Of a stretch of 64,000 nt of DNA, positions 1 to 30,420 are shown one piece after another. The notes under the pieces are model-generated. The model made no database searches. It saw nothing but the letters and a program-made list of their open reading frames with translations, and was not told the origin of the DNA. The first letter of the stretch is position 1, and each line of letters starts with the position of its first letter. Both the position numbers and the translations under genes were made by a program. Source of the DNA: Candidatus Aenigmatarchaeota archaeon (GTDB lineage Archaea; Aenigmatarchaeota; Aenigmatarchaeia; GW2011-AR5); NCBI GenBank assembly GCA_042584825.1, contig JBHOSK010000001.1:78393-142392 (forward strand). The letters are read 5' to 3'.

Positions 1-1
1 T

Positions 2-1075
2 GCTCAGGGTAGAAAAGCAGCCAATATATTGAAAGATCTTGGTATTTATGATGAATATGTTAAAATACCTGGTCAAAAAATATACGGTATTATATTGAGT
101 TCACCAAACGGAACACATGTAAACGTAGACATAACAGACCGTGGTAATCCAGCACCAGGATATGTCCATAAAAGAGAAATACTCGATGATTTCTTATACA
201 AAAATGCAGAAAAACTGGTAAAAACAAAAACACTAGAAGCCACAGACGTTATTATTGAAGATAATTTTGTTAAAGGTATTATAGGAAAGAACGCTAACGG
301 TGAAACAGAAGAAATACGCGGAAAAGTGTTACTAGCAGCAGACGGTGCACACAGCATAGTAGCAAGAAAGTTCAAACTTAATGATAATACAGCTGAACAC
401 AATATTTCAGGATTAAGAATTTATTATAAAAATGTAAAAGACACGACAGACAGAATTGAGATACATCTTGTCAAATCTCTATTACCTGGCTATTTCTGGA
501 TATTCCCATTACCAGACAACCAGGCCAATGTCGGTTTAGGAATGATTGTAAAGGACATGCAAGAAAAGAAAATTAACCTAAAAGAAGCGGTTTTGAAAGA
601 AATAAAAGAAAATCCGATTTTCAAAGATAGATTTAAAGACGCTGAACCGATTGAAGACGTTAAAGGATGGCCATTACCAGTCGCAAGCCATCATAGAAAA
701 TGTTATGGTAATGGATTTTTGTTGCTTGGTGATGCAGCAGGTCTTATTGATCCACTAAGTGGAGAAGGTGTTGGAAACGCAATGATATCAGGAAAACACG
801 CTGCTGCTATATCAATTCAAGCACTTGAAAAGAATAATTTCTCAGAAAACACACTGAAAAAATATGATAAAGATCTTTGGGATGAGATAAAGGATGAAAT
901 TAAAGCAAGTCACAGACTCCAAAGACTTGGTAAAAAATTCCCACACCTTATTGATAAACTGTTTGTGAAGGCGTCAAAAGATGAAGAATTTAGAAAGAAG
1001 TTTGAAGGAATGTTACCATATACAGCAGGCAAAAAAAAGATAGGTACTCGTGAATTTTTAAAGGCTCTGTTGTAA
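2..1075 (+). CDS. Geranylgeranyl reductase family FAD-dependent oxidoreductase (5' end outside window)
   Basis: Reading frame is open to the window edge. GDAAGLIDPLSGEGVGNAM signature and overall pattern match archaeal GGR-family lipid reductases. Confidence 0.75.
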   Translation, partial: AQGRKAANILKDLGIYDEYVKIPGQKIYGIILSSPNGTHVNVDITDRGNPAPGYVHKREILDDFLYKNAEKLVKTKTLEATDVIIEDNFVKGIIGKNANGETEEIRGKVLLAADGAHSIVARKFKLNDNTAEHNISGLRIYYKNVKDTTDRIEIHLVKSLLPGYFWIFPLPDNQANVGLGMIVKDMQEKKINLKEAVLKEIKENPIFKDRFKDAEPIEDVKGWPLPVASHHRKCYGNGFLLLGDAAGLIDPLSGEGVGNAMISGKHAAAISIQALEKNNFSENTLKKYDKDLWDEIKDEIKASHRLQRLGKKFPHLIDKLFVKASKDEEFRKKFEGMLPYTAGKKKIGTREFLKALL

Positions 1076-1084
1076 TTTTTTCTT

Positions 1085-1690
1085 ATGAAAATGATATCAC
1101 AAGGTGCAGAAGCAAAGTTATTCAAGGACAAGGATATATTGACAAAGGAAAGAATAAAGAAATCCTATCGTCTTGAAGAAATAGACCACATGCTTAGAAA
1201 GAGACGAACAAAAAAAGAAGCAAAACTTTTAGCTAGAGCTAAACGTGCAGGCGTTTTAACACCCAAAATAATAGATGTTGATAAATATTCAATAAAAATG
1301 GAATTTATAGAAGGATCAATTGTAAAGGACATCGTCAACAAAAAAAACCATAAAAAGCTCGCCGAATTAATTGCAAACGGTGTTGGGAAACTGCATTCAA
1401 GCGATATAATACACGGAGATTTAACAACATCAAATATGATATTGAAAAATGATGACCTATTTTTCATAGATTTTGGTCTTGGTTTTCATTCGTCCAGAAT
1501 AGAGGATAAAGCCAATGACATATATTTATTGCGTCAAATAATAGAATCAACCCACTTTGAGGTGTTTGAGAGCTTCTGGGATACTTTTTTAAGCATTTAT
1601 GCAAAAAAGTACAAAGACTCAAGGACCGTTATAAGCACAATTAAAAAGATTGAAAAACGCGGTCGATACAGAAAACGCAAAAGTGACTGA
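1085..1690 (+). CDS. bud32: Bud32/PRPK-type serine/threonine kinase (KEOPS subunit)
   Basis: Catalytic loop HGDLTTSNMIL and DFG-like FIDFGLG. The ~200 aa minimal kinase size is typical of Bud32. Confidence 0.8.
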   Translation: MKMISQGAEAKLFKDKDILTKERIKKSYRLEEIDHMLRKRRTKKEAKLLARAKRAGVLTPKIIDVDKYSIKMEFIEGSIVKDIVNKKNHKKLAELIANGVGKLHSSDIIHGDLTTSNMILKNDDLFFIDFGLGFHSSRIEDKANDIYLLRQIIESTHFEVFESFWDTFLSIYAKKYKDSRTVISTIKKIEKRGRYRKRKSD

Positions 1691-1740
1691 CGTATTGAAA
1701 ATACGTCCGTAATATCGAATATTAAGAACGGTGAATATAA

Positions 1741-2139
1741 ATGACTACAAAAACAGCAAAAAAAAGTAAAGATCAAAAATACGATAAAGAAGAAGTAATA
1801 AAACTAGTTAAGAAACTAGAAAAAGAAGGACACGGTCCAAGTATGATAGGTCTTATTCTACGTGATCAATATGGAATTTCTACAACACGATCTTATGGTT
1901 TAAGAACAGCAAAGCTTGTTGAAAGAAAGGAAGTTCCTGAAGACATGTACAATCTACTAGTAAAGGTAGTAGCACTTCATACACACATGGCTGCGAATAA
2001 ACGTGACTCAACATCAAAACACGGTCTTGAGAAAGCTGAATCCAAAATAAGAAGATTAGGAAAATACTACAAAAGAAAAGGACACTTACCAGAAAATTGG
2101 AAATACACAATTGAGTCAGCACGATTGTTAGTGCGATAA
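1741..2139 (+). CDS. rps15: 30S ribosomal protein S15 (uS15/S13e)
   Basis: C-terminal HGLEKAESKIRRLGKYYKRKGHLPENWKY and LRDQYGI pattern of archaeal S15P. Confidence 0.9.
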   Translation: MTTKTAKKSKDQKYDKEEVIKLVKKLEKEGHGPSMIGLILRDQYGISTTRSYGLRTAKLVERKEVPEDMYNLLVKVVALHTHMAANKRDSTSKHGLEKAESKIRRLGKYYKRKGHLPENWKYTIESARLLVR

Positions 2140-2203
2140 TTTGAAATAACCACTTTCCAGACCCTTTCGACAGACTTTTATCCATTTTTGTTATAATCTT
2201 ATT

Positions 2204-3592
2204 ATGGTTTTCAGTCGCCAGAGTATAGTAGATTATTATTCAAATGAACGCATTCTAGAACAATTGGTTAAAAATGCAAAGTCTCGTGAGGTTGCTGGAG
2301 CTTTATTTTCAGGAGCATACGAAAAAAGACCAAACATGATACAATTTCCAAACGATGTTGTGCAAATGGTGAAAAACGGGGTTACATCTTTTCATTTTTC
2401 TGTTGAACACTGGAAATATCCAATGGCTGTTACAAGAAGCAATTATGAAGATCTGAGAATCGGTTGGGACATAATTATAGATATCGATTCAAAATTAGGT
2501 ATAGAAGACGGTAAAATTACAGCAATTATGATATGTGATTTTCTAGAAAAATATAATATAAAGAACTATGGAATAAAATTCTCTGGTTCACGCGGATTCC
2601 ATATTTCACTACCATGGATAATGTTTCCGAATGAGATAGACTATAGACCATTAGCAAAAAGATATCCAGAAGTGTCAAGAATAATAGCAAATTTTATTAG
2701 AAAAAATATCAAAGACACCCTGATGAAAACACTGGTAAAAAGAAAAGGAGCAAAAGAACTATTTTCCTTATTAGAGACAAAACCCTCAGAACTTGATCCA
2801 TTCTATTTTGTAGATGTAGAAAACAACTGGGGAGCACGTCATCTATTCAGAGCACCATTTTCATTAAATGAGAAAAAATGGCTTTCCTCTGTCCCCCTAA
2901 ATAGAGAAAAACTAGAAAAATTTGAAATAAAAGACGCGCACCCACTTCATGTTTTAAAGAATATTGATAAGAACATACCAGATTTTATTAAGGGTGAGGA
3001 AAATGAAGCAACATCATTACTTACAGATGCACTTGACTGGCAAGCAACAATGAAAACATATGAAAAACCAAAAGAAAAAAAACCCATATCAATAGACAAA
3101 CAAATACCAGAAAAACTGTTTCCACCATGTATAAAGAATATTCTGAATGGTCTGGGTGATGGTAGAAAGCGCTCACTTTTCACATTACTCCACTTTCTTA
3201 GGTTAATGAATTGGCCGCAAAAAGAGATACAAGAAAAAGTCATTGAGTGGAATGAAAAAAATACTCCACCATTACCTAATAATTTAATTATAGGCCAATT
3301 ACGGTGGGCAGCACAGAATCATCTTAATCCAAACAACTGTAGCGCAGATGTGTATTATAGAGGTACAATAAATGTTTGCGCACCAGACCCAACATGTAAA
3401 TCAGGAAGTGACAGAATAAAAATAAGAAACCCACTAGCATACCCATTCAAAAAAATGCGTGCTGCACAAAGAGAAAAACCAAAAAAGAAAATTTTCATTA
3501 AACAATATCAATGTGGTATTTGTGATAAGGGATTCAAGAACAAAAAATCACTTAAAATACATAAATCAAGAACTCACAAAATTTATGACTGA
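2204..3592 (+). CDS. priS: DNA primase, single-chain PriS-PriL(CTD)-like fusion with C-terminal C2H2 zinc finger
   Basis: AEP primase motifs DIIIDIDS and FSGSRGFHISLPW in the N-terminal half. LFPPCIKNIL...RSLFTLLHFLRLMNW plus NNCSAD..NVCAPDPTC (4 Cys) resembles the PriL Fe-S C-terminal domain. The terminal YQCGICDKGFKNKKSLKIHKSRTH is a C2H2 finger. Confidence 0.75.
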   Translation: MVFSRQSIVDYYSNERILEQLVKNAKSREVAGALFSGAYEKRPNMIQFPNDVVQMVKNGVTSFHFSVEHWKYPMAVTRSNYEDLRIGWDIIIDIDSKLGIEDGKITAIMICDFLEKYNIKNYGIKFSGSRGFHISLPWIMFPNEIDYRPLAKRYPEVSRIIANFIRKNIKDTLMKTLVKRKGAKELFSLLETKPSELDPFYFVDVENNWGARHLFRAPFSLNEKKWLSSVPLNREKLEKFEIKDAHPLHVLKNIDKNIPDFIKGEENEATSLLTDALDWQATMKTYEKPKEKKPISIDKQIPEKLFPPCIKNILNGLGDGRKRSLFTLLHFLRLMNWPQKEIQEKVIEWNEKNTPPLPNNLIIGQLRWAAQNHLNPNNCSADVYYRGTINVCAPDPTCKSGSDRIKIRNPLAYPFKKMRAAQREKPKKKIFIKQYQCGICDKGFKNKKSLKIHKSRTHKIYD

Positions 3593-3627
3593 ACGTGTTT
3601 TTAATCCTTTTCCGCCTTATTCTAAAC

Positions 3628-4140
3628 ATGCTTACATTTGAAAAGATTCGCGATTTAGAACGTCAAGAGAGCATGGACAAAAACCTAGGAAAATTACCAG
3701 AAAATTTCATTGATGATGTGGACGAATATTTAGAAAGGAAAAAAGGTACAGATGAACGCGAATTAAAAAACATTAAAAATACAATAAAACGTCTTTTTGA
3801 TTTAAGGGAAAAAAAGATGCTAGATATGTCCTTATATTCAGTAAAGACAGGAATGCCGGTAGAAAACCTAACAAAGAAAGAAAAAGGAACATTTGATAAA
3901 TTGGTAGCTATATTAAAAGAGTATCGTAAAGAATTCTTCTCAAGCCTATCCATAAAGAAACCAGAAGTTAATAAACCCCAAAAGATTTTATATAGAGTAA
4001 AAAAACCATTACCAGAATTTGTTGGACCAGATTTAAAGATATATGAACTTAAAGAAAATGAGCTCATAGAAGACTTACCAAAACCTTTAAACGATTTATT
4101 GATAAAAGAAGGGGTTATAGAAAGGATAGAAAATGAGTGA
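3628..4140 (+). CDS. Putative GINS-family replication protein (hypothetical)
   Basis: Small K/E-rich helical ORF directly downstream of the primase, matching the conserved archaeal priS-gins neighbourhood. Start moved to ATG 3628. Homology not verifiable by eye. Confidence 0.4.
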   Translation: MLTFEKIRDLERQESMDKNLGKLPENFIDDVDEYLERKKGTDERELKNIKNTIKRLFDLREKKMLDMSLYSVKTGMPVENLTKKEKGTFDKLVAILKEYRKEFFSSLSIKKPEVNKPQKILYRVKKPLPEFVGPDLKIYELKENELIEDLPKPLNDLLIKEGVIERIENE

Positions 4141-4184
4141 AGTTTATAAGAGCTTCTGTGATTATATAGTGAGACGTGATTTAA

Positions 4185-4463
4185 ATGAAATATCCAAAAA
4201 AAGCAAGACGCTATTGTCCGTTTTGTAAAAAACATACAGAACACAAAGTTGAACAAGCAAAAAGAAAGCCAAGAAGAAAGGATACTCAAAGCCAGCGTAG
4301 GTTTAATAGAAAACTTCGTGGTTATGGATCTTTTCCTAAAGAAAATCCGAAAGGAAGAGAAAAACCAACAAGAAAGATTGACTTTAGGTTCGTGTGTTCA
4401 GAATGTAAAAAGAAACATAGCATAGGAAAAGGATTTAGAGTAAAGAAACTTGAAATGGTATAA
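4185..4463 (+). CDS. rpl44e: 50S ribosomal protein L44e
   Basis: [12 protein letters not shown]...CSECKKKH four-Cys ribbon and the basic [15 protein letters not shown] segment are typical of L44e. Confidence 0.9.
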
Positions 4464-5366: not shown

Positions 5367-8300
5367 ATGTTAAAGTTTATAGTCTTCGTGATTTTCATAA
5401 TTGCTATAATAGTCATGGAACCGTTTATCTTTGAATTTGTTCAGGGTGCAATTCAACCCGCGGTTGAGGGAGATGTTAAAGAAGTTTTAATTTATGACAG
5501 TGGTAGAACAGCTTATTTTAATTTGAATGTAGATGAGACAAAGGAGATTGCACAAGTTAAATTTATTTTTACAACGCATTCTGGAAAAGAATATGAATAT
5601 GAAATATTGGAAGGTAAGCAAGATGTGACCGTAACTTTCAGTAAGGGTGTTCTCGATATGATACTTGATAGAGAACCGCAAGAAACATATGATTACCAAG
5701 TTGATGCAGAGGACATTGAGTTTTTGTATAATTTCAATGAAATAGAAAAAATCGATGCTATATTAACATACACTACTGGAGATGTTGGAGATGACGACGA
5801 CACCGGTGATGATGATACAGGAGATGATGATTCAGGAGACGACGACACCGGTGATGATGACAGTGGAGACGACGACACCGGTGATGATGACACCGGAGAT
5901 GATTCAGGAGACGACGACACCGGTGATGATGACACAGGAGACGACGATGACGATGGAAATGAAACTTGCACACCCATTTGCACTGGATTAGTATGCGGTG
6001 ATGATGGTTGTGGTGGTTCTTGTGGAACGTGTGGTGACAGCAACGAATGTACAACCGATTCATGTGCAGGAGGTTTGTGTGAATATACAAATCTACCTGA
6101 CGGAACAATCTGTTCTGGCGGAACGTGTCAAACAGGAATATGTGTTGAATGTGTTTTAGACAGTGAATGTGATGATTCTATTGACTGTACCCACGATTCG
6201 TGTAATTCTGGAAGTTGTGAGAATAATCCCGACAATTCCCTTTGTAGTGATGGTGATGTTTGTGATCGTGTCTATGGATGTGTACCCGAAATTCATATTA
6301 ATGACTTTTGGCTTGCTGGTCAAGGAGACAGCCCTTATTATTTAGACACCGAAAACGCACACTATATCTTAGAAACAGATGTTACAACTCCTGGGGTAGC
6401 CTTTGCTATGATTAGTAACGGCATTGTATTTGATTTGAATGGGCATATCATTACTTACAATAATGCTCCTCCGATTGAAATTGACAACAATGATTTTCAA
6501 GAAGGTTCTGGAACAAATGTTCCTGGTTGGGATCTATCTCTTGCACCCGATACAAGCGTTGGTCCTTCTGTCTTTAGTCATTTAGATGAATATGCTAATG
6601 AAAGAGCGCTAATAGTCGATACACCCAATACCAATAACCAATATATTGAGAGTGTTGATATTACCTTGGAACCGAATACAAATTATTCCCTTTATATGAG
6701 ACCTTTTTCTGCTGTTATTGGTTGGGAAACTCCTATAAATGAAACTCCTTTGATTATTTTGCGACTAAAAAACCACCCAGAAGTCAATCTTACATATCAA
6801 CAAAGAAGTAATCGTGGTGTTGCATACGTTACTGCAAGTTTTAATACTGACGGAACGATGTGGACTGATAAAGTTGTTATTGAAATCTTGAATTCCCAAT
6901 ATGCAAACGAAGGACATATTTATGTTGAGAATGTAGGCATTGTTCGTGGAAGAAGTCCAGGAATTCTAATTGGCGTTCAAAGTTGGAAAAATTATGATTA
7001 TCCTGAAGTTAATAGGTATGGCTTTTCTGATTATTCAACAGTAAAGAACGGTATAATCAAACAGGGCGATGGTATGAGTGAATTTTCTCACGGTGTTTAT
7101 GGTATCAGAAACAATGAAGTTCACGACCTTGATATTACTGTTAGTGGCCCAAACACGGCAAATGTAAAAACAGTTAATACTGTGCATGATAATAATTTAT
7201 TCAACAATGTCGAATGGATCACTTCGAGGGACAATTTCCATGGTGCTGTGATTTCCGGTACATATAATGCATATAATAATGTTATTGAAGGAGGTTGTCA
7301 GAATGGTATTGTCCCAGTCGATAATTCGGTTATCCACCACAACACCATTTCCTTGAAATCCCACTATACCAACGGTTACGCCATTCAGGGATATGGAGTT
7401 GACGATTCCTTATTTTATTCAAACAATATTGATTGCACAGGCGATGGCTATGCGTGCAGGGGTATTTTTGTTGGAGGTGGTTCACAAAATATAGAAGCTT
7501 TTGATAATCAGGTTATTGTTCAAGAGTTGGCAAGAGTTCAGGAATATGGTGGATGTCAAGGAGGATCTTTGTCCGGGGCTTACGGCATACAGTTTGAAAC
7601 ATCAAACAACATCAGCGTGTACAACAACGATGTAACAGCAATTTCAACCGAATGTGCTGCTAATGCGCTTCGATTGAACGGTGATGTTTCAAATAGAGAC
7701 AATAAAGTGTATGATAATATTTTTAAGGTAAAAAGATATCCAGTTAATCCAACAGATTTCTTCCCTGTGGCTACAACTGTAAAAATCGGTGGAGGTATAG
7801 AAAATAGTCGGGAAACATTCTTTATTTTCAATAATACATTTATTACAAATCATAGATATTTTTCAGTGCATGAAATATCTGACTTACATTTTGTAAACAC
7901 AACTTTTATCATTGATCAAGAAAACCTTGAAAACCCGTTTGAACCTTATGTTGCTGAATATTACGAAGGTTATAATGAATATGATTTACCAAAAATTGAT
8001 TCGATTAAATTAATTGATAATACATATCCGGATGGATCAACAGGTGATATAATAAAAGAGCAAAGAATCCATAAGAAATTTTATACTGATTTTGGTGTTG
8101 ATGAAAATTGTTCTTATTATTACTCTTGGACGTTAGACTTGTTTGTTCACGATGATGGGAATCCAATTGATTCTGCAACTGTTATTATCCGAAATGTAAA
8201 TAATGATGTTATTGTAGATTCTACGACCAATAGCTATGGTAAGTTAAATGTTGTGCTGGACGAATTTTATCGAAAAGGAGAAAATACAATAGAGTTTAAC

Positions 8301-8396
8301 CCGTATACAATTGAAATTATTAAATCTGGCTATGATAATTTTAATACAGAGATTATTATGGATAGAACAAGAACACTTGAAGTCGATTTATCTTAA
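5367..8396 (+). CDS. Large secreted/surface protein: acidic tandem repeat, Cys-rich module, parallel beta-helix, C-terminal Ig-like domain
   Basis: N-terminal hydrophobic anchor. (G-D-D-D-T/S)n tract. CTPICTGLVCGDDGCGGSCGTC...CTTDSC module. Repeated hxxNxh turns (VHDNNLF, YNNVIEG, HHNTIS, YSNNID, FDNQVI, YNNDVT, YDNIFK, FNNTFI) typical of PbH1 beta-helix. C-terminal CarboxypepD_reg-like segment. Confidence 0.7.
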   Translation: MLKFIVFVIFIIAIIVMEPFIFEFVQGAIQPAVEGDVKEVLIYDSGRTAYFNLNVDETKEIAQVKFIFTTHSGKEYEYEILEGKQDVTVTFSKGVLDMILDREPQETYDYQVDAEDIEFLYNFNEIEKIDAILTYTTGDVGDDDDTGDDDTGDDDSGDDDTGDDDSGDDDTGDDDTGDDSGDDDTGDDDTGDDDDDGNETCTPICTGLVCGDDGCGGSCGTCGDSNECTTDSCAGGLCEYTNLPDGTICSGGTCQTGICVECVLDSECDDSIDCTHDSCNSGSCENNPDNSLCSDGDVCDRVYGCVPEIHINDFWLAGQGDSPYYLDTENAHYILETDVTTPGVAFAMISNGIVFDLNGHIITYNNAPPIEIDNNDFQEGSGTNVPGWDLSLAPDTSVGPSVFSHLDEYANERALIVDTPNTNNQYIESVDITLEPNTNYSLYMRPFSAVIGWETPINETPLIILRLKNHPEVNLTYQQRSNRGVAYVTASFNTDGTMWTDKVVIEILNSQYANEGHIYVENVGIVRGRSPGILIGVQSWKNYDYPEVNRYGFSDYSTVKNGIIKQGDGMSEFSHGVYGIRNNEVHDLDITVSGPNTANVKTVNTVHDNNLFNNVEWITSRDNFHGAVISGTYNAYNNVIEGGCQNGIVPVDNSVIHHNTISLKSHYTNGYAIQGYGVDDSLFYSNNIDCTGDGYACRGIFVGGGSQNIEAFDNQVIVQELARVQEYGGCQGGSLSGAYGIQFETSNNISVYNNDVTAISTECAANALRLNGDVSNRDNKVYDNIFKVKRYPVNPTDFFPVATTVKIGGGIENSRETFFIFNNTFITNHRYFSVHEISDLHFVNTTFIIDQENLENPFEPYVAEYYEGYNEYDLPKIDSIKLIDNTYPDGSTGDIIKEQRIHKKFYTDFGVDENCSYYYSWTLDLFVHDDGNPIDSATVIIRNVNNDVIVDSTTNSYGKLNVVLDEFYRKGENTIEFNPYTIEIIKSGYDNFNTEIIMDRTRTLEVDLS
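5787..5954. repeat. In-frame tandem repeat encoding (GDDDT/S)n acidic tract, with a 30-nt higher-order unit
   Basis: ggagacgacgacaccggtgatgatgaca(gt/cc/ca) occurs three times (5835, 5865, 5907) within a 15-nt periodic GAT/GAC tract. Confidence 0.9.
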
Positions 8397-8443: not shown

Positions 8444-10132
8444 ATGGAAAACAGGCTTTTACTAATAATTCTCATCGCGTGTCTAGTTCTGATAAGTGCT
8501 TGCACTGAGCAAGCTCGAGATCTAATGAACCAAACCAATAATGAAGCCGGTGGTGATGACAGTTACGATGGATGTGGTAATGGAATCTGTGATTATGATG
8601 AAACCTGTGACAGTTGCATTGCTGATTGTGGTCTTTGTGTAGTATGTGGTGATTCTATCTGCGACAGCGATGAAACCTGTATTACATGTCCTGGAGATTG
8701 TGGTATATGCGGCAATGATGACACAGGCGATAATGATGACGACACTGATGGCGATAACGACGATGATGACATCGGTACCGGGGGTGGTACCGGAGGTGGT
8801 TCTGGTAGTGGTTCTGGAGATCCTGCACCATGCACACCCATTTGCACTGGATTAGAATGCGGTGACGATGGTTGTTCGGGTTCCTGTGGAACTTGTGATG
8901 ACAGTAACGAATGCACAACCGATTCATGTGCAGGAGGTTTATGTGTCTATACAAACGTTACAAATGGTACTGCTTGTACTGGTGGTGTTTGTTTTTCAGG
9001 TTCGTGCGTCGAATGTATTTTAGATAGCGATTGTGATGATTCTGTCGCTTGTACTGTTGATACTTGTGCAAGTAATGTTTGTGTTAATACACCCGATGAT
9101 AACTTGTGTGGTACCAATGAAGTGTGCGTTGCTGATACTGGTTGTGTTTATGTTGATCCAGGAGAACCAGTTATTCTTAGTGTTTCAGCTCCGCTGGAAC
9201 AAGGACAAGACATTACAATTACTGGAAGTGGATTTGGTGTTAAGGAAAACGTCACTCCTATGTTATGGGATGATTTCGAAGACGGTGTGGCTGGTGAGAA
9301 CTTAACTGATCCAAAAGTAGGTTCTTGGGAAATTTCCCACGGTCAAACCAGTCCTTGGCCCTACTTCTCAGATGGACAAAGCCATTCTGGAAGTCTAGCT
9401 ATGTACGGAAGCAACAACAGGGGATTGAGTAGTTATATTTATACCCGCTTCCCTCAAGTTGAAGGTAATTTCATATGGTCATTCTGGTTTTGGCATGATC
9501 ATGAAGAGTGTACACAAAATTGTGCACAAAATGAATGCTGCGGTCAAACAAAAATCATGCAACTCTGGGGAACACAACCATACACAAGAGATTATGATCC
9601 CGGAGTAATGTCTGGAGGCGCTGCTGGAACATGGTTTATCAGTTATGTGGTTACTGATTATGGGAGTGACAATTCCCAGGAAAGTTGGTATACAGGTGCA
9701 CCATCTCGAGGAGAGTGGCACAGATTTGACGCTATTCTTAAACAAGGCGGAGATAACGTATCTGATGGAAGCGTAGAGTTACTTGTAGATCAAGAGCGTA
9801 TTTATTATAAACCTGACATTATTACAAGAGATGATGGCCAATGGTGGGACAGGGCACTATTCTTCTATGGATTCACTAACTGGCATACCGACATATTTGT
9901 TGAAAGGTACTTAGACGATGTTTATTTCGATTCATCTTGGGCTAGAATTGAATTATGTGACAACCAAACCAAGAATTTATCCACACAATGTGAAATACAA
10001 CCTCCGCACACAACGTGGTCTGATACGTCAATTCAGTTCACAACAAACCTGGGAAGTTTTACAACAGAACAATTATATTTGTTCGTTATTGATGAATATG
10101 GAACTGTAAGCAATGGATATCCAGTTACTTAA
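8444..10132 (+). CDS. Secreted lipobox-type surface protein with Cys-rich repeats, an acidic/Gly-rich linker and the Cys-rich module shared with 5367-8396
   Basis: Signal LLLIILIACLVLISAC. CGNGICDYDETCDSC / CGDSICDSDETCITC repeats. D-rich then GTGGGTGGGSGSGSG linker. CTPICTGLECGDDGCSGSCGTC...CTTDSCAGGLC is near-identical to the neighbouring gene. Confidence 0.7.
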   Translation: MENRLLLIILIACLVLISACTEQARDLMNQTNNEAGGDDSYDGCGNGICDYDETCDSCIADCGLCVVCGDSICDSDETCITCPGDCGICGNDDTGDNDDDTDGDNDDDDIGTGGGTGGGSGSGSGDPAPCTPICTGLECGDDGCSGSCGTCDDSNECTTDSCAGGLCVYTNVTNGTACTGGVCFSGSCVECILDSDCDDSVACTVDTCASNVCVNTPDDNLCGTNEVCVADTGCVYVDPGEPVILSVSAPLEQGQDITITGSGFGVKENVTPMLWDDFEDGVAGENLTDPKVGSWEISHGQTSPWPYFSDGQSHSGSLAMYGSNNRGLSSYIYTRFPQVEGNFIWSFWFWHDHEECTQNCAQNECCGQTKIMQLWGTQPYTRDYDPGVMSGGAAGTWFISYVVTDYGSDNSQESWYTGAPSRGEWHRFDAILKQGGDNVSDGSVELLVDQERIYYKPDIITRDDGQWWDRALFFYGFTNWHTDIFVERYLDDVYFDSSWARIELCDNQTKNLSTQCEIQPPHTTWSDTSIQFTTNLGSFTTEQLYLFVIDEYGTVSNGYPVT

Positions 10133-13800: not shown

Positions 13801-13917
13801 GCTGGGATGGCAGAGACCGTAAAGTACGAAGTACTTCTATGGCTGAATTGGACTATAGCGCCAGCCTGGAAAGCTGGTATCCGAAAGGGTGCAGGGGTTC
13901 GAATCCCTTTCCCAGCG
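13801..13917 (+). tRNA. tRNA-Ser(GGA) with a 32-nt non-canonical intron between acceptor stem and D stem
   Basis: Acceptor GCTGGGA/TCCCAGC. After removing 13810-13841 the D arm is GCTG-AATTGGACTA-TAGC. Anticodon arm CCAGC-CTGGAAA-GCTGG. Long variable arm ATCC-GAAA-GGGT. T arm AGGGG-TTCGAAT-CCCTT. Discriminator G, no encoded CCA. Confidence 0.8.
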
Positions 13918-13983
13918 CTATTTACTACTTTTAAAAGGTAACAAACCGAAAACTTTATATACTGGTTCTTAGTAAATAAATGC

Positions 13984-14538
13984 ATGTCAGAATTAATAGT
14001 TTTTTGTAACCCCGGTCAAGTGTATAGAGGAAGATCTGAGTTAGATGTTGCAAGAGCTTATACTGAGATGGCTATTACTGAATATGATAGATTGGTTGGT
14101 TTTCGATCAGATTACAGTGACCACGCTGAAACACCCGACTTTGAATATGTTACTGGAAGAAAAGGAGGCCGCGATTTGCAATTAACCCTATTCGCTCGAC
14201 AACCAATGATAAAAGTTGGAAATGTTAATGCACCATTTACTTCATCAAGTTATCTTTTTAATCCAACCATAGAACACAGAGATTTACTATTACCAGATTT
14301 AGATATTGTTCAATTAGACGGACCTTCACAAGTCAGAGATGCGGCAGATGCAATATCAGAATTTTATCGAGATCACGGATGGACAGTTCATATATTTGAC
14401 GGATCTGTACCAAAAACAACAACAGTTAAACCAACATCTGATAGATTAGGTGGTTCTATTGAAATATATTCTCCTGATGTATTGCGAGAAATTGCTAAAG
14501 AAAGAGTAGGTTACGATAAAGATAGATTATGTTTCTAA
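13984..14538 (+). CDS. Orphan protein, Lys-poor/Arg-Asp-rich composition class
   Basis: 184-aa ORF with 6 K vs 16 R by my count. TATA-like ctttatatac lies ~22 nt upstream. First module after tRNA-Ser. No family recognised. Confidence 0.5.
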   Translation: MSELIVFCNPGQVYRGRSELDVARAYTEMAITEYDRLVGFRSDYSDHAETPDFEYVTGRKGGRDLQLTLFARQPMIKVGNVNAPFTSSSYLFNPTIEHRDLLLPDLDIVQLDGPSQVRDAADAISEFYRDHGWTVHIFDGSVPKTTTVKPTSDRLGGSIEIYSPDVLREIAKERVGYDKDRLCF

Positions 14539-14540
14539 GG

Positions 14541-14578
14541 AAGGGAGTCTCCTTTTTCAGAACAGCCCTTTCCCAGCG
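14541..14578. repeat. Degenerate copy of tRNA-Ser 3' region (att-like repeat R2)
   Basis: aagggagtctcctttttcagaacagCCCTTTCCCAGCG. The last 13 nt are identical to tRNA-Ser 13905-13917, and the leading aaggg matches tRNA 13885-13889. Confidence 0.6.
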
Positions 14579-14595
14579 TAACACACCGGTGTTAC
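14578..14595. terminator. Hairpin between convergent genes (GTAACAC-ACCG-GTGTTAC)
   Basis: 7-bp perfect stem with a 4-nt loop, immediately after repeat R2, between the stop codons of 13984-14538 (+) and 14604-14786 (-). Confidence 0.35.
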
Positions 14596-14603
14596 CGGAA
14601 ATC

Positions 14604-14786
14604 TTATCTTTTCTTCTTTTCAGATAAGCCCATGAAAAAGAACGCAATACCAATTATGAATGAAACTATCGCAAGCATAATAGGTATGAATGCATCATAG
14701 TTCAATATGCCTGGTGATGCATAGAATATCAACGCAACTATTATCATGACAATTCCAACAGAGAAATTATATGTATTTTGATCCAT
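14604..14786 (-). CDS. Small two-TM membrane protein
   Basis: 60-aa ORF with two hydrophobic helices and a KKKR tail. TATA-like aatatttatatag lies ~35 nt upstream. Confidence 0.4.
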   Translation of the reverse strand: MDQNTYNFSVGIVMIIVALIFYASPGILNYDAFIPIMLAIVSFIIGIAFFFMGLSEKKKR

Positions 14787-14834
14787 GTTATCACATCTTT
14801 ATTTTTTTAATTTTCATCTATATAAATATTAAAA

Positions 14835-14871
14835 AAGGGAGTCTCGTTCTACAAAACACCATTTCCCAGCA
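14835..14871. repeat. Degenerate copy of tRNA-Ser 3' region (att-like repeat R3)
   Basis: aagggagtctcgttctacaaaacaccaTTTCCCAGCa. It shares aagggagtctc and tttcccagc with R2 (about 75-80 percent identity over ~40 nt) and overlaps the last codons of ORF 14849-15463. Confidence 0.55.
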
Positions 14872-15463
14872 CAACATCCCGTCTAAGATTTAGTCTGGCA
14901 TATGCAAGAAAATCCTGATATTCGATACTATCTCCTGATCTCCTAATAACTTCAAAAAAACGATCACTCATCATGATCCCATCTCTCGTAGCTGTTTTTG
15001 ACCAGTCATCGTCGTCAATACCAGCAAAAGGAACAAGAAGATTACTATCCTCCATCAGAACAAAACCTGAGGTCGGGTGAAAGTATATTATACCAGATTC
15101 ACGTGATCCAGATTCGTATTCACGTACGTTTTCTTCTGTTGGACCAATTCTTCCTAATAATCTTCTAAATCTAACATGGCTAAGAGAAGTTTCACCAACT
15201 AAGTCCATCACACCCCTATCACCAACAGACGCATAAGGAACTATCACAGGAACGTACCTGGGGGCTACTACATTACGATATTTACGATCATCAGCATCAG
15301 GTGGACAAAATGCATGAGCTTTATCCCGAACTACAACCGGAGTACACTCTTCCTCTATTCCTACCCTACCACATCTTCCTATCTCGCGGTATTGGGTTTC
15401 AAATATAGTATTTAAACAACCATCTTTCTTTGCTGACATTTTTGGCCCGTGTATAAGTCTCAT
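14849..15463 (-). CDS. Orphan protein, Lys-poor/Arg-rich composition class
   Basis: ~204-aa ORF from ATG 15463. TATA-like atttataag lies ~25-30 nt upstream. No family recognised. Confidence 0.5.
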   Translation of the reverse strand: MRLIHGPKMSAKKDGCLNTIFETQYREIGRCGRVGIEEECTPVVVRDKAHAFCPPDADDRKYRNVVAPRYVPVIVPYASVGDRGVMDLVGETSLSHVRFRRLLGRIGPTEENVREYESGSRESGIIYFHPTSGFVLMEDSNLLVPFAGIDDDDWSKTATRDGIMMSDRFFEVIRRSGDSIEYQDFLAYARLNLRRDVVLGNGVL

Positions 15464-15689
15464 AAACACAATAGGGCAAAAACACTTATAAATCTTTCGA
15501 TCTGTACCTACTGTTTAGTTAAGAATTCTCCTTTTTTACCCAAAAATCAAATTTGGTTTATAAACAAAATCACAAAAATGGAGATAAATATATAAACAAG
15601 CCCCGAATTTTGCCATATATTTATTGTTACTACTTATATGTGGTGAACAATACAAATCTTTAAATACTGATCCCCGGTTCTAACTAATT

Positions 15690-16019
15690 GTGATTGATAT
15701 GACAACTGGAAAAGCATATGGATTTTTTGACTGTGATGCCCCTAAAGCGAGAGTAATGGGGGAAATGCCACATATTCGTAGCGCTGTTGGAACACCAGAT
15801 AGATTACAGCTTTATTTAACCGAAGGTATGGATCCTCAAGGTATGGGTAACAGGTATGAATTTGAAGTAAGACATCCTGGTGCAAGTAATAGAAGAGCAG
15901 CAACCGAAGCTACCATAGTTCTTAATCAAACCTATCAATCTCCTGCTTTTAGAAATGGCGGACCTTTTACAGGAGAAATTGTTTTTGAAGAAAAAGGCGA
16001 ACGTGTCTATAGAGAGTAA
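15690..16019 (+). CDS. Orphan protein, Lys-poor composition class
   Basis: 109-aa ORF (GTG 15690, or ATG 15699). TATA-like tctttaaatac lies ~30 nt upstream. Divergent from 14849-15463. Confidence 0.45.
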   Translation: MIDMTTGKAYGFFDCDAPKARVMGEMPHIRSAVGTPDRLQLYLTEGMDPQGMGNRYEFEVRHPGASNRRAATEATIVLNQTYQSPAFRNGGPFTGEIVFEEKGERVYRE

Positions 16020-16041
16020 TTTATCCAGAGTTTTTCCAGCG
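16011..16041. repeat. Third degenerate tRNA-Ser 3'-like repeat (R4), followed by a hairpin
   Basis: agagagtaatttatccagagTTTTTCCAGCG aligns to R2 with a short deletion. It is followed by hairpin AAATTACT-gaaaaaat-AGTAATTT (16045-16068). Confidence 0.4.
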
Positions 16042-16108
16042 TAGAAATTACTGAAAAAATAGTAATTTTATTCATAAATATTAAAATAAAAATAAAAAAT
16101 CAAGTGAT

Positions 16109-16387
16109 TTATCTTCTTCTTGTTGTTCTTCTTCCTCTTGTTTCTGTCCTTCTCCTAGTTCCGGTTCTTTCCCGTCTTCCGGTTTCTGTCCTTCTTTCTG
16201 TTATTCTTCTTATTTCTGATCTTGTTTCTACTGCTCTTCTTGCTTCAGCAGCTTCTCTTCTTGCTTCAGCAGATTCACGTCTTGCTTCAGCAGCTTCTCT
16301 TCTTGCGTCCGCAGCTTCTCTTCTTGCTTCAGAAATTTCTCTTTCAAATCTTCTTTCTGATCTTCTTTCTGTTCTTCTTTCTTCCAT
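16109..16387 (-). CDS. Arg/Glu-rich heptad-repeat protein (EARREAA)n; strand assignment uncertain
   Basis: MEERRTERRSERRFEREISEARREAADARREAAEARRESAEARREAAEARR... The ORF is preceded by GGGGGTGA 5 nt upstream of ATG 16387 and uses AGA/GAA/GCT codons. A mirror Leu/Ser-rich ORF is open on the + strand. Confidence 0.45.
   Translation of the reverse strand: MEERRTERRSERRFEREISEARREAADARREAAEARRESAEARREAAEARRAVETRSEIRRITERRTETGRRERTGTRRRTETRGRRTTRRR
16238..16342. repeat. 5 x 21-nt tandem repeat (tcttgcttcagcagcttctct)
   Basis: Unit starts at 16238, 16259, 16280, 16301 and 16322. It encodes the heptad EARREAA on the minus strand. Confidence 0.9.
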
Positions 16388-16628
16388 ATTTTCACCCCCT
16401 TTCATTTGAAAAGTACGATTATCTAATTTTGTTACTAAAATGACAACCCCACCCTAAAAATATGGGTTTTACATCAAATAAAGATTACATCACGATAAAA
16501 TCACAAGATTTTCGTCTATAGTTCAAAGAACACGATACATTTCCTGACATAAGCATAACATTACACGGTTATAGAAGAAATCACAAAACCGGATATTTTT
16601 ATACCACATCTTAACAATATAATATATA

Positions 16629-30279: not shown

Positions 30280-30420
30280 GCGGGGGTTTCCGAGCGGTCA
30301 AAGGAGCAGGACTTAAGATGGTATTAAGTTTATCTTAAGTTTGGAGTAGTTTATCTACAATGACATAAAAAGAAATCCTGTGGGTTAGTCCCTTCGTGAG
30401 TTCGAGTCTCACCCCCCGCA
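30280..30420 (+). tRNA. tRNA-Leu(UAA) with a 57-nt intron at the canonical 37/38 position
   Basis: Acceptor GCGGGGG/CCCCCGC. D arm TCC-GAGCGGTCAAA-GGA. Anticodon arm CAGGA-CTTAAGA...TCCTG. Long variable arm. T arm GTGAG-TTCGAGT-CTCAC. Intron segment TCTTAAGT is complementary to ACTTAAGA of the anticodon region. Confidence 0.85.

Follow-up and report, generated by a model that had tools for sequence, protein, structure and literature searches.

Fragments of tRNA genes arise through the integration of mobile elements (PMC9897764). The attachment (att) sites of archaeal integrated elements are 8–69 bp long, and re-use of one site builds arrays (PMC6563490). A comparable accumulation is known for cis-mobilizable elements (CIMEs), which lose the integrase, keep the att sites and pile up in tandem at the 3′ ends of tRNA genes; both CIMEs and tandem accretion of the ICESt1 type have been described in Firmicutes, with a cognate integrative and conjugative element (ICE) or integrative and mobilizable element (IME) nearby or in the population (PMC5704250). 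Here, we analyzed a 64,000-nt stretch of DNA (the window) from a 143,942-nt contig in the metagenome-assembled genome of a DPANN archaeon, Candidatus Aenigmatarchaeota. Within this window, a tRNA-Ser(GGA) gene is followed by small genes and by repeats that contain copies of the last 13 nt of the tRNA. Our preferred interpretation, to which we assign a probability of roughly 50%, is that the region from 13918 to ~16040 (possibly ~16400) is a small accessory or foreign islet, built up by successive site-specific insertions at the tRNA-Ser(GGA) 3′ end.

Copies of the tRNA 3′ end downstream of tRNA-Ser(GGA)

The tRNA-Ser(GGA) gene was matched by the Rfam tRNA model RF00005 (13839–13910, 36.6 bits) and is the only tRNA found by Rfam in the 64 kb, with no further tRNA fragments in Rfam at E ≤ 5. 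ARAGORN missed the gene in the genomic sequence because a 32-nt non-canonical intron follows the 5′ acceptor strand (GCTGGGA, 13801–13807); once 13808–13839 was taken out, an 85-nt tRNA-Ser(GGA) with a long variable arm was called. The intron is located near position 7/8 and includes a small hairpin, and its borders (~13808–13839) are ambiguous within a duplicated ATGGC. The gene is intact and does not encode CCA, and its last 13 nt, CCCTTTCCCAGCG (hereafter the core), are the putative site of strand exchange (13905–13917; Table 1).

As the initial annotation had stated, the core at 13905 recurs exactly at 14566, 661 nt downstream of the tRNA copy, and it is found again with two mismatches (11/13) at 14859. 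At up to two mismatches the window holds three matches, compared to 0.32 expected, and none of 100 shuffled sequences reached three; an exact copy of the 13-mer is expected by chance ~2e-4 times across the whole window, as estimated from base composition. The shorter TTTCCCAGCG was found five times in the window at no more than one mismatch: on the + strand at 13908, 14569, 14862 and 16032, and once more at 30287. Four of these five near-copies fall within 2.2 kb on the same strand, and the motif is thus, in the data available, not a generic element. Of the further copies that had been proposed, the one at 14859 holds up, whereas the one at 16032 is weaker than claimed. The locus accordingly has the arrangement used to recognize tRNA-targeted elements: the 3′ part of an intact tRNA gene recurs as a direct repeat.

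The downstream copies are embedded in longer repeats, R2 and R3, with the element written as AAGGGAGTCTC..TTTCCCAGC. The two share 79% identity across 43 nt (p<0.0005), within the ~75–80% reported together with the common aagggagtctc in the initial annotation, and AAGGGAGTCTC was found in the window only at 14541 and 14835. In an nhmmer search with a profile built from R2 and R3 themselves, the two self-hits had E values of 7e-16 and 5e-13, and the next best match in the window was the tRNA end, with E 0.85. Judged from these alignments, R2 and R3 are true homologues, and ~30 nt of their match is not tRNA-like. Beyond the 13-nt core, neither R2 nor R3 resembled the tRNA (5′ side, p 0.68 and 0.14, respectively; 3′ side, p 0.25 and 0.92). 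The suggestion that the repeats duplicate the stretch from the variable arm to the acceptor thus fails: the 13 nt are tRNA-derived, the ~30-nt left arm is not, and the aaggg prefix thought to connect the repeats to the variable arm is a chance match (p 0.68, 0.14). Long tRNA-derived repeats could be ruled out on the same grounds, with nothing similar beyond the core (p 0.14–0.68).

For R4, the support is mixed. Its TTTTCCAGCGTA matches the R2 12-mer at 11/12 positions and a gapped local alignment to R2 gave p=0.004, but R4 was not recovered by the R2/R3 profile, and its earlier assignment as a repeat copy stands only in part. The modules delimited by the repeats measure 661, 293 and 1170 nt, in agreement with the 0.66, 0.29 and 1.17 kb given before, and the hairpins noted after R2 and after R4 both fold as described (7 bp and ~10 bp). 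No common RNA fold and no tRNA-like fold was found for R2 and R3 (z −1.7, −0.2); R3 is unfolded and R2 forms two unrelated small hairpins.

On the opposite strand, R3 overlaps the last codons of ORF206 (open reading frame; numbers give the length in amino acids). The single homologue of this protein ends at ORF206 residue 198, and the last eight codons (VVLGNGVL) come from the R3 core and arm. The reading frame thus continues into the repeat past the point where its relative ends, as would be expected if the original end of the gene had been replaced at a junction.

The surroundings of the islet are of a different kind. The window has a GC content of 34%, and ~59 of its ORFs, as analyzed by Pfam, correspond to ordinary archaeal core chromosome, with genes for primase, Cbf5, ribosomal proteins, RNA polymerase subunit D and RNase P p30 as well as eIF2 subunits, ArgRS, PolX and deoxyhypusine synthase, among others. 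Beyond the islet, from 16629 onward, are the genes of a 178-aa membrane protein and a GTPase. Neither the islet nor the ~59 ORFs across the 64 kb yielded any integrase or other recombinase, transposase, replication or virion gene in Pfam, in keeping with the absence of an integrase in the initial annotation, and the islet ORFs gave no PHROG matches.

Table 1 Features at the tRNA-Ser(GGA) locus, with positions in the window
Feature	Position	Strand	Description
tRNA-Ser(GGA) gene	13801–13917	+	Rfam RF00005; ARAGORN once intron removed
Core copy 0, CCCTTTCCCAGCG	13905–13917	+	T-stem 3′ strand CCCTT, acceptor 3′ strand TCCCAGC, discriminator G
F1	13918–13983	+	BRE/TATA promoter (..CCGAAAACTTTATATACT..) and leader of ORF184, homologous to F2
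ORF184 (NCBI ACFLQN_00595)	13984–14538	+	Intact; belongs to a conserved, unnamed family of DPANN proteins
R2	14536–14590	+	Non-tRNA arm 14536–14565 with AAGGGAGTCTC, exact core 14566–14578, short tail
Hairpin GTAACAC-ACCG-GTGTTAC	14578–14595	.	Perfect 7 bp, between convergent ORF184 and ORF60
ORF60 (ACFLQN_00600)	14604–14786	−	Small two-helix membrane protein; promoter ~14787–14830
R3	14830–14883	+	Arm 14830–14858, core CCATTTCCCAGCA with 2 mismatches 14859–14871, tail
ORF206 (ACFLQN_00605, 204 aa in NCBI)	14849–15469	−	Near-orphan protein
F2	15622–15692	+	Promoter/leader of ORF109, homologous to F1
ORF109 (ACFLQN_00610, 106 aa in NCBI)	15690–16019	+	Rare protein
R4	16011–16043	+	Degenerate, AGAGAG...TTTTCCAGCGTA; moderately supported
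Hairpin GAAATTACTG...AGTAATTTT	16044–16069	.	~10 bp predicted fold, between convergent ORF109 and Arg/Glu-rich ORF
Arg/Glu-rich low-complexity ORF	16109–16405	−	Five 21-nt tandem units, 16210–16339

A second repeat family

A second family of repeats, F1 and F2, of ~65 nt and missed by the initial annotation, was detected upstream of ORF184 and ORF109 (Smith-Waterman p<0.0005). An nhmmer profile of F1 and F2 returned self-hits with E 8e-13 (F1) and 1e-16 (F2), and the next best match in the window had an E value of 5. Both repeats carry a promoter of the TFB-recognition element (BRE)/TATA type and share exact TTACTACTT and CTTTAWATACTG, and the TATA part of F1 is also kept upstream of ORF184 homologues from other genomes. 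A generic promoter consensus was ruled out as the explanation for F1 and F2, as no other promoter in the window scored better than E 5. The two + strand genes ORF184 and ORF109 thus have a common 5′ leader, and more weakly share a 3′ end consisting of AGnGAG..TTTnCCAGCGTA and a hairpin. They are not paralogues, the proteins being without similarity. A candidate fifth decayed copy of the R element upstream of F2 (15570–15626) was rejected (p 0.18–0.28 against R2, R3 and the tRNA, with no nhmmer match).

Comparison with described systems

The islet was compared to archaeal integrated elements of the SSV, pTN3 and TKV types and to the cryptic integrated elements of Thaumarchaeota (PMC6563490, PMC9897764, PMC5495485). 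As in these, an intact tRNA has its 3′ part repeated in direct orientation, the att site is short (inside the range of 8–69 bp), one site is re-used to form arrays, and the cargo seems to be narrowly distributed. It differs from them in having no integrase or hallmark gene and only 13 nt of identity to the tRNA, in size, with units of 0.3–1.2 kb where the archaeal elements span several to tens of kb, and in its host, a DPANN genome (Aenigmatarchaeota).

Similarity to CIMEs lies in the integrase-less units, the att sites that are kept, the tandem stacking and the related att arms in neighboring units. Like CIMEs, the islet shows units in tandem with an att site on both sides, namely the tRNA core and R2, R2 and R3, and probably R4. 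In contrast to CIMEs, its units are much smaller and essentially single-gene, and no partner element is known.

Integron arrays and clusters of attC sites lacking an integron integrase (CALINs), archaeal ones included (PMC9668308), resemble the islet in consisting of short, mostly single-gene modules between reiterated repeats of recombination-site type, and the ORF184 family is found as an attC cassette elsewhere. The islet repeats, however, have no R″/R′ boxes or palindromic attC fold, and their anchor is the 3′ end of a tRNA rather than an attI site beside intI. Integron cassettes are moreover mostly co-oriented and promoterless, whereas the genes of the islet face both ways and have promoters of their own.

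Possible origin by insertion at the tRNA 3′ end

The following course of events would account for the islet. A tyrosine-recombinase-type integrase, now gone from the locus, would have exchanged strands within CCCTTTCCCAGCG, and with each insertion the 3′ end of the tRNA would have been restored on the left, while on the right the arm of the element came to lie ahead of a second core copy. Later insertions, into either the tRNA or an existing junction, would have pushed the older junctions downstream, where they decayed; in this order the core would fall from 13/13 to 11/13 and then to a 10-mer with one change, the oldest copy being the furthest away. The recombinase and most of the element content would subsequently have been lost, so that the remnants would be CIME-like, integrase-less units with one or two expressed genes each. 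Since R2 and R3 share the ~30-nt non-tRNA arm, at least two of the inserted units would have carried related attachment sites.

Of the two origins put forward in the initial annotation, a stack of eroded integrated elements is the better supported, and a cassette-type mechanism is neither shown nor excluded. Judged from the sequence, the former accords with cores that lie on one strand and become increasingly imperfect, starting at the intact tRNA. It is likewise in keeping with the gene content, the cores separating Lys-poor and rare or patchily distributed genes in a window that is otherwise core chromosome. The homology of R2 and R3 beyond the core is what would be expected of arms from related elements, and the occurrence of one ORF184 homologue within a cassette array (contig L041, see below) points in the same direction. 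We infer from this combination that the repeats originated by recombination, in the order given above, and that the DNA between them is foreign.

Several observations weigh against this interpretation. No hallmark genes of mobile elements were found in the islet or the 64 kb, and the modules of 0.29 and 0.66 kb are far below the size of the integrated elements described so far. Simple decay would not predict that every module has an intact gene and a promoter for it, and elsewhere the homologues of ORF184, ORF109 and ORF206 are mostly located in ordinary chromosomal contexts. To the right of the cores the tRNA and R2 differ, though the left arms of R2 and R3 agree, and the duplication of F1/F2 is left unexplained by a model of att-site scars. 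Furthermore, searches for an attP-bearing element, a second genome with the R element or a sister genome returned none.

These comparative searches gave the following results. The 231-aa protein flanking the islet had no relative in the GTDB representative genomes, and all flanking proteins were singletons at 90% identity, with no sister genome found. A 24-mer of the tRNA 3′ end was absent from the GTDB representative genomes and a 20-mer of it from IMG/VR (exact-pattern scan). A search for the exact pattern of the R element in JGI metagenomes, a check already proposed in the initial annotation, gave 27 matches, none in a related context; all were in unrelated contexts, with differing gap length or GC. 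A viral origin of the cargo was looked for in IMG/VR relatives, PHROG matches and BFVD structures (E ≤ 0.001), none of which was found.

Alternative explanations

The tiny units, intact genes, lack of a hallmark gene, differing right flanks and F1/F2 leader together keep alive a second explanation, in which single-gene cassettes form an array anchored at the tRNA. Small circles, each comprising a promoter, an ORF, the arm and the core, would be inserted and excised by a recombinase encoded elsewhere, with the tRNA end in the role of the integron attI and the arm-plus-core in that of attC. We regard this as unlikely, and so also the stronger form of a working or recently working array of 0.3–0.7-kb one-gene units, which would have an F-type leader at the 5′ side and arm, 13-nt core and hairpin at the 3′ side. 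The intervals from the tRNA to R2 and from R2 to R3 do hold one gene each, and the arm common to R2 and R3 next to differing right flanks looks as if the recombination site were at one end of the unit. In addition, the two + strand units share the F1/F2 leader and the end formed by AGnGAG..TTTnCCAGCGTA and the hairpin around unrelated ORFs. An ORF184 homologue is an attC-flanked cassette in L041, and integrons have been reported in archaea, Aenigmatarchaeota included (PMC9668308). On the other hand, there are only two solid repeat copies, both in a single genome, and the 27 metagenome matches were all in unrelated sequence contexts. The window encodes no recombinase, the genes run in both directions, and the repeats have no hairpin or inverted-repeat architecture. 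The interval between R3 and R4 holds two genes with no demonstrable junction between them (p 0.18–0.28), and R4 itself is weak. If the units could be mobilized as cassettes, archaea would have a second system for capturing cassettes, one with no relation to integrons and with a tRNA replacing attI.

It is quite unlikely that the repeats are cis-acting functional sequences, such as 3′-end, termination or protein-binding elements, that spread by local duplication with no integration involved, the likeness to the tRNA end being due to the same factor handling the tRNA 3′ end. R2 and R4 are indeed positioned just past the stop codons of + strand genes and followed by hairpins, and, as F1 and F2 show, the locus has undergone duplication of regulatory DNA. 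R3, however, follows no + strand gene and is antisense within the end of ORF206. No conserved RNA fold is common to R2 and R3, no acceptor-strand partner is available to make a tRNA-like helix, and none of the other ~60 genes in the window has the motif.

Quite improbable, too, is a local duplication without recombination at att sites, through slippage, gene conversion or segmental duplication, combined with a fortuitous or conversion-tract match to the tRNA. Two unrelated repeat families within 2.2 kb suggest a locus prone to duplication, and the similarity to the tRNA is confined to the core. Yet an exact same-strand 13-mer of the tRNA end is expected within 0.7 kb ~4e-6 times by chance (from base composition), and the mismatches rise with distance from the tRNA. 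The DNA following R2 and that following R3 are unrelated (p=0.77), which excludes a tandem duplication.

A degenerate integron cassette array of the CALIN type is very improbable: an ORF184 homologue does lie between attC-like repeats in L041 and archaeal clusters of this type are known (PMC9668308), but no RYYYAAC...GTTRRRY pair with a hairpin was found in 13.9–16.7 kb, which largely refutes it, neither R2 nor R3 takes the fold of an imperfect palindrome, and the genes have TATA-type promoters of their own and mixed orientations, with no IntI in the window.

Three further candidates were dismissed. An insertion sequence (IS) element or miniature inverted-repeat transposable element does not fit repeats that are direct rather than terminal inverted ones, ~54 nt long and present in two copies in 64 kb with no transposase. 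By reasoning alone, an assembly artefact was rejected because chimeric joins would need longer repeats than 13 nt, or more similar ones than 54 nt at 79% identity, and a tRNA-primed retroelement (primer-binding site) because the copies have the same sense as the tRNA and no CCA complement.

Genes of the islet and their relatives

The initial annotation had considered ORF184, ORF206 and ORF109 to be without family, which our searches do not bear out. For ORF184, 15 homologues with 44–59% identity were found, and their alignment contains 36 invariant columns, including the motifs SSSYLFNP and LLLPDLD. The AlphaFold model is of high confidence (predicted local distance difference test, pLDDT, 92.5; predicted template modeling score, pTM, 0.89) and gave no PDB or BFVD match at E ≤ 0.001, and the sequence gave no Pfam or PHROG match. 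Structurally, the nearest hint comes from AdoMet decarboxylase, a pyruvoyl enzyme that the model weakly resembles (PDB 2iii, probability 0.66, TM ~0.3). Going by the predicted structure, these DPANN proteins may have a fold, or form an enzyme family, not described before. The ORF184 homologues of three longer contigs are located among housekeeping genes, with no R-like repeat and no tRNA nearby.

A different context was found in contig L041 (JGI 3300005096, Ga0072503_150878; 1–3722), where the ORF184 homologue is part of a cassette array. The array contains direct repeats of ~100 nt with 95–97% identity (1–100, 801–900 and 1712–1811, and a partial copy at 3497–3528). The first two intervals hold one gene each, the ORF184 homologue and then a DUF5680 gene, and in the last interval there are two, a cupin/ectoine-synthase-like gene and one for a protein of 296 aa. 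An attC-like hairpin is predicted for the repeat, ATTTAAC-AGCGGTTTA...TAAACCGC-GA-TGTTAAAT (z −3.3 to −3.6), with GTTAAAT pairing with ATTTAAC. It served as a positive control for attC: besides the hairpin fold it has the R″ and L″ boxes, and R′ is fully canonical (GTTAAAT) in one copy only. The array is probably an archaeal-type integron or an integrase-less attC cluster with the ORF184 family as a cassette.

Additional small elements were observed around the ORF184 homologues. An inverted repeat, TTTGAATTTTGGCC ... GGCCAAAATTCAAA, brackets the homologues and their promoters in several contigs (L001:5931–6567, L041:98–737, L043:~3688–4340, and L042 downstream of 3621), with one arm upstream of the TATA box and the other just past the stop codon, followed by a conserved AAACTCTGCGG. 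The ORF184 gene of the window does not have this inverted repeat, for which an end-to-end stem of the mRNA or cassette ends are candidate roles. In L001, a 580-kb DPANN contig, the ORF184 homologue and a PQ-loop gene are flanked on both sides by 45-nt elements AATACTGAGCCTTGCTCACTATATTTTAATTAAACTCTACGACAT, four in all (5582–5834 and 6917–6961), which are 69–80% identical and contain a TATA-like box and a small hairpin; no more copies were present in the 12.5 kb of L001 examined. The 8-mer TTCCCAGC, which is part of the window core, occurs at L003:5945–5952 and also in L004 and L005, right after the MazG stop codon and ~50 nt upstream of the ATG of the ORF184 homologue. Its chance probability is ~0.003 (post hoc) and there is no second copy nearby, and coincidence is possible.

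Among the remaining genes of the islet, ORF60 is the sole gene between R2 and R3. A word-index search with ORF206 returned only the self-hit, and one distant full-length homologue was found (190 aa, unknown function; 31% identity, E 5e-11), adjoining a gene that we take, from its translated sequence, to encode ribosomal protein S6e. Structure prediction gave no confident model of ORF206 (pLDDT 29). ORF206 overlaps R3, as a fragment of a split integrase of the SSV type would, but this origin was rejected, as there were no Pfam or PHROG matches and the only homologue is the 190-aa protein. ORF109 has two homologues (~45% identity) in ordinary chromosomal context.

The Arg/Glu repeat ORF that had been annotated next to R4 was recovered with its 21-nt tandem repeats. 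This putative ORF of 98 aa is rich in Arg, Glu, Ala and Thr (35% Arg), and no other ORF of the window deviates as strongly in composition; opposite to it is a Leu/Ser-rich ORF of about the same length, so that either strand, or neither, may be coding. It may mark the distal end of the islet. Together with ORF184, ORF206 and ORF109 it is Lys-poor, these four adjacent ORFs being among the top 7 of 71 for Arg/(Lys+Arg), while the GC content of the islet ORFs deviates by just +0.3 to +1.7 standard deviations; the deviation for which three ORFs had earlier been described as compositional outliers is mild, low Lys and high Arg being the clearer signal. Elsewhere in the window, the adjacent large ORFs at 5367–8396 (1009 aa) and 8444–10132 (562 aa) had no Pfam match at E ≤ 1e-4, and the latter has the highest GC content (0.42) among the window ORFs >500 aa.

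Implications

The tiny genomes of DPANN archaea are thought to change chiefly via gene loss and patchy gain. To our knowledge, few mobile elements of these archaea have been described, though no literature search was made on this point. On present evidence, the islet is an ordinary kind of feature made of unusually small pieces. If the insertions into the tRNA 3′ end took place as proposed, the locus would provide direct sequence evidence of site-specific gene acquisition in Aenigmatarchaeota, and tRNA-Ser(GGA) would be a hotspot worth inspecting in related genomes.

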